From positions 19,344,001 to 19,408,000 of the forward strand of contig OZ024751.1 of the NCBI GenBank assembly GCA_964016885.1: a DNA stretch of 64,000 bases. The letters are read 5' to 3'. Under the pieces are notes generated by a model. It saw nothing but the letters and a program-made list of their open reading frames with translations. It was not told the origin of the DNA and ran no database searches. Positions 8,002-8,962 of the stretch are shown here, piece by piece (position 1 is the stretch's first letter; every line of letters begins with the position of its first letter). The stretch comes from Eledone cirrhosa. Its lineage: Eukaryota. Position numbers and translations under genes: made by a program.

Positions 8002-8210
8002 CTCACATATATATACCCACATATACACACATGCAAACACCCACTTGGATACATAGATACATACATAGTCAGGCAGACAGAAAGACATACATAAAATCAG
8101 ACAGTTATGCTTACGTGCACACATGTGTTACAGAGTTCAGTAAAATATGTAGCCATCAGCTATGAACACTATACCTTTTGGTCTTGTTTTTCACCGGGTC
8201 ACTGTATAAT

Positions 8211-8308
8211 ATTTTGCTACCTCTGATGATATACAGTATTATTACATTGCTTAAGCGTAACTATTGGTTTGATCATATATGTATTGAAACATTTGTAAGG
8301 TATTAAAT
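8211..8308 (+). ncRNA. Type I hammerhead ribozyme-like fold
   Basis: tacct-CTGATGA(8223-8229)-t.ataca...tgtat.t-GAAA(8286-8289)-catttg-TA-aggta. Confidence 0.65.
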
Positions 8309-8364
8309 GATTTAAGAAACCTATTCTATCTTCTTAATGTCTTATATATATATATATGTGTGTG

Positions 8365-8422
<58 letters not shown>

Positions 8423-8425
<3 letters not shown>

Positions 8426-8688
8426 AAAGTTCTATTTAAAATTGTTGGGATACAACAAGTAAATATTTTTATAACTGATATAAAGCACTCGACAAGTATT
8501 TGGAGTAGATCGATGGCTTCCAAAAATAATGGTTGCATTTTAAAAGGGTACGTCAAAGCTTATTTGTAAAACTATTATATATTGTATTTTATCTGATGAA
8601 GGCATACCATAATTTAATTTGGTATCCCTGAAATATGTATAATGAAATAAATATGGTTTTATAAATATAGTTTCCATTTATTAATATC

Positions 8689-8689
<1 letters not shown>
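8423..8689 (+). mobile_element. Short hammerhead-bearing non-autonomous element in (TA)n
   Basis: Same termini (gcaaaagtt...taatatcg) and body as 16288-16702 on the minus strand. Confidence 0.75.
8579..8654 (+). ncRNA. Type I hammerhead ribozyme fold
   Basis: tattttat-CTGATGA(8593-8599)-aggcatacca/tggtatccct-GAAA(8630-8633)-tatgta-TA-atgaaata. Confidence 0.8.
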
Positions 8690-8729
<40 letters not shown>

Positions 8730-8772
8730 GTAGGAGGTGAGTTTTATTGTAGTACAATAGCCTTCATATCAT

Positions 8773-8858
8773 GTTCTCCTGTTTTATCTGATGAAAACAC
8801 AAATATTATTGCATGATGATGTTTGTTTTTGAAATGCGCATAATAAAATACATGGAAC
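8773..8858 (+). ncRNA. Type I hammerhead ribozyme fold
   Basis: ttttat-CTGATGA(8788-8794)-long G.U-containing stem II-GAAA(8831-8834)-palindromic tgcgca-TA-ataaaa. Confidence 0.8.
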
Positions 8859-8962
8859 TCCTTTAACCATCTTTTGATCTTATATTATATATATATATAT
8901 GTATATAATTTTATATATGTAGAAAAAGAGACAGAGCGGGAGAAAGAGAAAAGAGAGAGAGG

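Follow-up and report, generated by a model that had tools for sequence, protein, structure and literature searches.

The three hammerhead ribozymes that lie in tandem within a 64-kb stretch of Eledone cirrhosa DNA (the window, by which we mean the whole stretch of 64,000 nt) very probably derive from three separate, 5'-truncated insertions of Penelope-like elements (PLEs) that target (TA)n tracts; these would have been stacked by chance, each leaving only its hammerhead-bearing end. Two of the sequence islands that carry the hammerheads (islands 2 and 3) would stem from Hydra-type elements, and island 1 probably does so as well. The locus is ordinary for this genome, and it illustrates the stacking of TA-targeting PLEs. 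Its features, in order of position, are as follows.

8143..8341, plus strand: island 1 (M1), pseudo-LTR (pLTR) remnant of an old, decayed family of Penelope-like build; 5' border approximate, by homology to locus L186
8218..8302, plus strand: hammerhead 1, type I; stem I TACCT/AGGTA; core 8223-8229; stem III 8-mer ACATTTGT; predicted cut after 8297
8343..8422, no strand: (TA)n tract, target and spacer
8423..8510, minus strand: island 2, tail sequence from behind the parent pLTR, in inverted orientation (z 12.9 against the L092 tail)
8511..8689, plus strand: island 2 (M2), direct pLTR of a probable Hydra-type Penelope-like family (z 22.6 against the L092 pLTR)
8585..8649, plus strand: hammerhead 2, type I; core 8593-8599; stem III 8-mer ATATGTAT; predicted cut after 8641
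8690..8727, no strand: (TA)19 tract
8728..8759, minus strand: island 3, inverted last 32 nt of the parent tail
8757..8885, plus strand: island 3 (M3), direct pLTR of a young, probably Hydra-type family (100% over 126 nt against other copies and the L091 5' pLTR)
8780..8850, plus strand: hammerhead 3, type I; core 8788-8794; palindromic stem III 8-mer ATGCGCAT; predicted cut after 8842
8883..8911, no strand: short TA-rich tract closing island 3

The initial annotation had described three complete type I hammerheads with CTGATGA cores at 8223, 8593 and 8788, all on the plus strand, and our type I descriptor recovered the same three. With this descriptor, no further type I hammerhead was found on either strand of the 64-kb window, and none of 5000 dinucleotide shuffles of 8051-8900 gave a match. 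The predicted cut sites, and the 344- and 201-nt pieces that cleavage there would release, were likewise reproduced in both coordinate and size. The hammerhead scan that had been called for gave a divided answer: our own descriptor was positive for all three, whereas Rfam, at its gathering threshold, matched no hammerhead family in the window. Each of the three has CUGANGA and GAAA cores, a UH site, three stems and an open stem I, the latter comprising five pairs in hammerhead 1 and eight in both hammerheads 2 and 3. The stems of hammerhead 2 are variable among 28 M2-like family variants, with pairing kept. Counting these variants, which are related and do not represent independent events, stem II position 2 is A-T in 12, G-C in 15 and G-T in one; position 5 is A-T in 19 and G-C in five; and position 6 is T-A in 20 and C-G in four. 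The maintenance of these stems through changes on both sides argues that the hammerhead fold was under selection in the parent elements.

The islands had been taken to be unique, but each proved to be a dispersed repeat. For island 1, the best 40 of 154 candidates were scored and yielded partial matches at 75-95%; for island 2, the best 40 of 1542 candidates included 39 non-self places that match over nearly the full length at 91-97%; and for island 3, the best 40 of 61 candidates included at least eight non-self matches that are 100% identical over 126 nt, all of these copy counts being lower bounds. By sequence comparison, the three islands are assigned to three separate families. The earlier statement that they lack homology outside the core holds for the window copies when these are compared directly (z 2.1, -0.2 and 2.0), but not for the parents of islands 2 and 3, which are related: their reverse transcriptases (RT) are 59% identical, and a comparison of pLTR plus tail scored above all 200 shuffles (z 3.7). 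No relative of island 1 was more than 84% identical, a cover of 70% being attained at two of 59 loci; the nearest relatives of islands 2 and 3 are 98.9% and 100% identical, respectively. These values point to three insertion dates.

Within the M1 family, an M1-type descriptor match is kept in only three of 29 loci, while the hammerhead of island 1 is intact; this may reflect ascertainment or retention. A second, older island-2-like copy was found elsewhere in the window, between TA tracts (16289-16701, minus strand); its tail stands in direct order about 170 nt off, and its GAAA core fails the descriptor. Further surroundings comprise a SINE-like tandem array on either side of the hammerhead region (6319-7082, 4 x 187 nt; 9235-9821, 3 x 197 nt), in neither of which ARAGORN detected a tRNA, and a LINE-type reverse transcriptase fragment (10786-12270, minus strand; RVT_1, E 2.7e-13), the sole match among the 13 frames scanned.

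The Penelope-type origin proposed in the initial annotation was borne out by full parent elements with Hydra motifs for islands 2 and 3, the evidence for island 1 being weaker. At L091, an open frame of 821 codons (5794-8256) lies between two pLTRs (5560-5684 and 9271-9395), both of which carry the island 3 sequence, and an inverted 5'-truncated copy stands in front of the element. L092 contains a related frame that ends in the island 2 pLTR, followed by the reverse complement of the first 87 nt of island 2. In L091, RT, linker and C-terminal GIY-YIG follow one another in a single frame, and the pLTRs bear a hammerhead, which is the organization that defines EN+ PLEs; L092 is similar. Tandem copies and inverted 5'-truncated copies with the tail at one end, a further mark of this class, were found for the parents of both islands. 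Islands 2 and 3 accordingly share one build, in which a direct pLTR abuts a segment, in inverted orientation, of the tail that stands behind the parent pLTR. The L091 element as a whole (5560-9489) appears to be an intact, young, Hydra-type element with near-identical pLTRs, and its 1-kb 3' UTR is pyrimidine-rich and makes it longer than published Hydra elements. An RCTC..GAGY-RC hairpin is present in the inverted tail of island 2 (8485-8506, minus strand); it also occurs at L091:5695, L091:5785 and L092:6465, and it lies a few bases behind each of two points where copies end.

Both parent proteins have DKT instead of DKG, and neither shows the GxKF/Y pattern (the N terminus of L092 is missing). 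The linker motif CxCX5C is present in both, and the L091 endonuclease has CxxC and CxH motifs adjacent to its conserved E and N residues. The frame of L092 stops early, and CxxC can be made out among its final residues. At the N-terminal RWK site, L091 reads RWT, in a region that L092 lacks. Atlas look-alikes of the parent proteins, with scores of 0.95-0.98, have GIY-YIG, RVT_1 and HTH_animal families on some of their members; Pfam gave no relevant match on three PLE frames, and a PDB sequence search with the parent protein returned chance matches only (E 0.74-0.79). Judged by these motifs and look-alikes rather than by a tree, the parents of islands 2 and 3 are likely to be Hydra-type PLEs. 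The Neptune clade, our first guess, failed the linker test, CX2-5CxxC being present in neither protein, and the Naiad clade, defined by an N-terminal endonuclease and no canonical hammerhead, was rejected because the endonuclease motifs are C-terminal and a canonical type I hammerhead is present.

The family of island 1 is decayed but has the corresponding build, with a pLTR, a tail of about 150 nt and inverted copies. At L186, one of 30 M1 loci, RT fragments that are 46% and 61% identical to the L091 protein adjoin the M1 3' region and share its strand, and PLE fragments occur in other positions at three further loci of the 30. The L186 junction is suggestive of a Hydra-type parent for island 1 also. 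A separate open frame, at L100:5924-7468 (minus strand), looks by eye like another Penelope-like type, for which Pfam gave no support.

The targeting of TA tracts, which had been proposed as the source of the cluster, is supported by the ends of the copies as well as by the differing ages. Against a TA background of 7.6%, M3 pLTR ends (n=61) run into TA in 33 cases, into tail in 24 and into other sequence in four, and M3 tail ends run into TA in 27 of 29. For M2, the corresponding pLTR ends (n=59) are 41 TA, 10 tail and eight other, and 34 of 42 tail ends adjoin TA. For M1, in which some loci were counted twice, only nine of 58 pLTR ends adjoin TA, 25 tail and 24 other sequence, and 15 of 21 tail ends adjoin TA. 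Insertion into (TA)n, a trait of the Hydra clade, is thus seen far above background for the families of islands 2 and 3. Moreover, island 2 has a different inversion junction in each of the 23 copies that could be read (six of 29 were unreadable), so that each copy is its own insertion product; amplification of the 265-nt island 2 as a fixed unit was rejected on this ground.

Drawing on established knowledge of this class, we envisage that the element endonuclease would nick (TA)n and that reverse transcription would be primed there. Reverse transcription would often halt after 100-270 nt, and the halted copy would consist of a direct pLTR and an inverted tail fragment, bounded by TA at either end. 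Since TA flanks each copy, every insertion would leave fresh targets beside itself. No empty-site allele was seen; judged by divergence, the islands would have been inserted in the order 1, 2, 3. The hammerheads would have served RNA processing of the parent elements; at this locus they are likely to be passengers, and the strand shared by all three is likely due to chance (1 in 4).

Two further features of related copies were noted. Island-2 copies at L039 and L045 are flanked by 30-50 nt of duplicated unique sequence and TA, resembling long target-site duplications. Direct copies tend to begin at certain distances upstream of the core, about 75-85 nt for M2 and 30 or 65-70 nt for M3, a pattern that is partly query-biased, and they span the cleavage site intact; the preferred starts may correspond to the 5' end of an RNA or to a template that was religated.

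To place the locus in its genomic context, we sampled 76 evenly spaced 10-kb stretches (759,200 bases), leaving out four stretches beside the window. The type I descriptor identified 73 hammerheads in 28 of the 76 stretches, compared with zero or one in each of five shuffles, and the sampled hammerheads (L105-L184) fall into at least 14 sequence families. This corresponds to a density of 96 per Mb (bootstrap 50-159), which falls to 64 per Mb (41-92) when two tandem-array loci are omitted. For a genome of 3.0 Gb, extrapolation from 0.76 Mb suggests a total of about 190,000-290,000 hammerheads of type I; in the literature on hammerheads of octopus and other cephalopods, we found no such whole-genome count. 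The two tandem arrays (L179:1-9136 and L166:1-3475) are head-to-tail repeats of a 468-490-nt unit, every copy of which bears a single type I hammerhead (19 and seven matches, respectively), and are true retrozyme-like satellites.

The clustering and orientation test that the initial annotation had asked for came out positive for clustering and negative for an excess of same-strand neighbours. Neighbours were counted for 14 families, namely the three described here and 11 from sample matches, not all of which are shown to be PLEs. Hammerheads cluster about two-fold, with nine pairs compared with 4.2 expected under uniform placement (P 0.019), and shared TA targeting is a sufficient explanation for a clustering of this size. 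Within 600 nt, different-family neighbours lie on the same strand in 10 cases (11 before one double count was removed) and on opposite strands in 17 (p 0.25); in the spaced samples alone, the figures are zero and nine (p 0.004), and within 1500 nt they are 15 and 26 (p 0.12). The lean towards opposite strands possibly arises from insertions whose pLTR ends face outward on either side. By extrapolation, the genome would contain about 35,000 mixed-family pairs. Other stacks were found at L128, where M3-TA-M2 and a second M3 lie within 1 kb, at L057, where five families are assembled in about 2 kb, and at L126 and L079, the last with M2-like and M3 islands on one strand across (TA)16. Since mixed neighbours are frequent, a same-strand trio is an expected draw. 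We therefore caution that same-strand clusters of hammerheads are to be expected by chance in a genome so rich in them.

These observations bear directly on the proposal that the trio is a heterologous ribozyme array with a function or a selective advantage of its own, and on the related reading that islands 1 to 3 together make up a single composite, non-autonomous element (a chimeric retrozyme), which moves or is selected as a unit. Such a unit would account for the presence of three hammerheads on one strand within 620 nt, and the arrangement at L079, with its M2-like island, (TA)16 tract and M3 island on one strand, resembles part of it. However, the M2-like member of the L079 pair belongs to a different subfamily (86% identical), and neither inverted tail is present there, and the M1-M2-M3 trio was absent from all 87 non-self related loci (29 per island, with 1.5 kb fetched on each side). 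Neither the differing ages of the islands nor the lack of a same-strand excess in the neighbour counts fits a unit, and published retrozymes are described as tandem repeats of one monomer (PMC7229834). We consider a composite element extremely unlikely, and the selected array is not upheld. A non-LTR retrozyme proper was also rejected: 8095-8885 contains three families and no tandem unit besides (TA)n.

A different question is whether the locus, even if it arose as a chance stack, could be biochemically live, with hammerheads 2 and 3 folding as a mixed intramolecular double hammerhead that releases a circularizable 201-nt piece. Their stems would permit it: the 5' stem I strand of hammerhead 2 and the 3' strand of hammerhead 3 form 10 of 10 pairs, all Watson-Crick, the reverse combination forms eight of 10, the cross stem III forms seven of eight when G-U is allowed, and the mixed fold is fully nested. 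Over 8578-8860, the mixed fold is predicted to lie 7.8 kcal/mol below two monomers (-55.0 compared with -47.2), the 201-nt circle would rebuild an 8-pair stem I, and metazoan PLE hammerheads have been proposed to act as dimers (PMC4209133). In two longer contexts, however, the mixed fold lies above two monomers (-85.2 compared with -86.5, and -155.4 compared with -160.1), and in all three contexts its energy exceeds the predicted minimum by 7-20 kcal/mol, in folding models that ignore tertiary contacts and co-transcriptional folding. The stem III duplex between hammerheads 2 and 3 is weak (-1.6, compared with -10.5 for hammerhead 3 with itself), and published PLE dimers and trimers cleave weakly in vitro (PMC4209133). 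Hammerhead 1 has stems incompatible with those of hammerheads 2 and 3, so that a 344-nt circle would not rebuild stem I. As for the active monomer fold, it is predicted to cost 4.9-6.1 kcal/mol in each hammerhead.

Transcription of the locus is also a consideration. No host gene was recognized among the 13 frames scanned in or beside the window, a scan that short exons would escape, and 16 runs of at least four T separate the upstream SINE-like array from hammerhead 3. Among the sequencing runs listed for 8045-8342, none was an RNA run; three small-share runs from one sample, of unknown kind, cover at 90% likeness the family-shared parts of this interval and not the locus-specific part, and are silent on expression or an empty allele; a bacterial promoter scan gave results below chance and is irrelevant to an animal. 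On balance, we regard a live mixed double hammerhead at this locus as very unlikely. Its generalization would be that same-strand neighbours of Hydra families with cross-compatible stems I and III, piled up in TA tracts by the tens of thousands, could wake each other as mixed double hammerheads, cut transcripts and yield chimeric circles (here of 201 nt), so that new retrozymes would arise from unrelated PLE ends; we think this very unlikely. The hammerhead 2-3 pair is nevertheless a natural construct with which to ask whether PLE hammerheads of different families complement each other, a question that bears on the role of the weak PLE ribozymes.

In the chance stack of truncated PLE insertions, which we favour, each island would correspond to the 3' end of a PLE of the Hydra clade. 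As described by Craig et al. 2021 (PMC8557442), this clade of C-terminal-endonuclease PLEs has a cephalopod member, Hydra-1_Obim, and is characterized by DKT, a CxCX5C linker, CxxC and CxH in the endonuclease, RWK, canonical hammerheads and insertion into (TA)n. The elements described here resemble it in their single RT-linker-GIY-YIG frame with DKT, CxCX5C, CxxC and CxH, in the type I hammerhead of the 3' pLTR, in their (TA)n targets, and in their inverted 5'-truncated copies with a tail at one end. They differ from it in the length of the L091 unit (about 3.7 kb owing to the 1-kb 3' UTR, compared with a published 'generally <3 kb'), in RWT of L091 instead of the RWK of the clade, in a tail of about 90 nt rather than 30-40 bp, and in a stem III segment of 8 nt where most of the listed Hydra motifs have 9-10; by eye, none of the three hammerheads matches the Hydra-1_oBim motif listed in PMC8557442.

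Compared with the metazoan PLE hammerheads of Cervera and de la Pena 2014 (PMC4209133), those of E. cirrhosa have in common the long stem II, the short palindromic stem III, the many divergent families per genome, and a mostly solitary occurrence, linked to truncated PLEs, with some close pairs on opposite strands. In that work, a single metazoan PLE motif showed no detectable cleavage and dimers and trimers showed low cleavage, and most metazoan PLE hammerheads were regarded as solitary remains of truncated PLEs. The hammerheads reported here differ in keeping a stem III of two pairs with a 4-nt loop, which brings them nearer to the 'variant' forms, and in having T-T, A-T and A-T in place of the G10.1-C11.1 pair. 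Stacks of different families are not discussed in the available portion of PMC4209133, nor did we find mixed-family stacks in the literature on octopus and cephalopod hammerheads or on PLE hammerhead dimers.

Animal non-LTR retrozymes (Cervera and de la Pena 2020, PMC7229834; Li et al., bioRxiv 10.64898/2026.07.22.740005) share with this locus a relation to PLEs and type I hammerheads placed 200-350 nt apart on one strand, and the pieces predicted to be released here would fall within the range of 170-400 nt. They are, however, head-to-tail repeats of one monomer, whereas the window holds three families split by (TA)n, two of them with inverted tails. As regards abundance, our estimated load of about 190,000-290,000 exceeds the 126,247 given for axolotl in PMC7229834, a figure obtained with a different descriptor, and the giant squid paper reports only 235 Rfam hammerheads (PMC6962438). 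Set beside these systems, the islands are probably additional Hydra-type PLE ends, stacked by their shared target.
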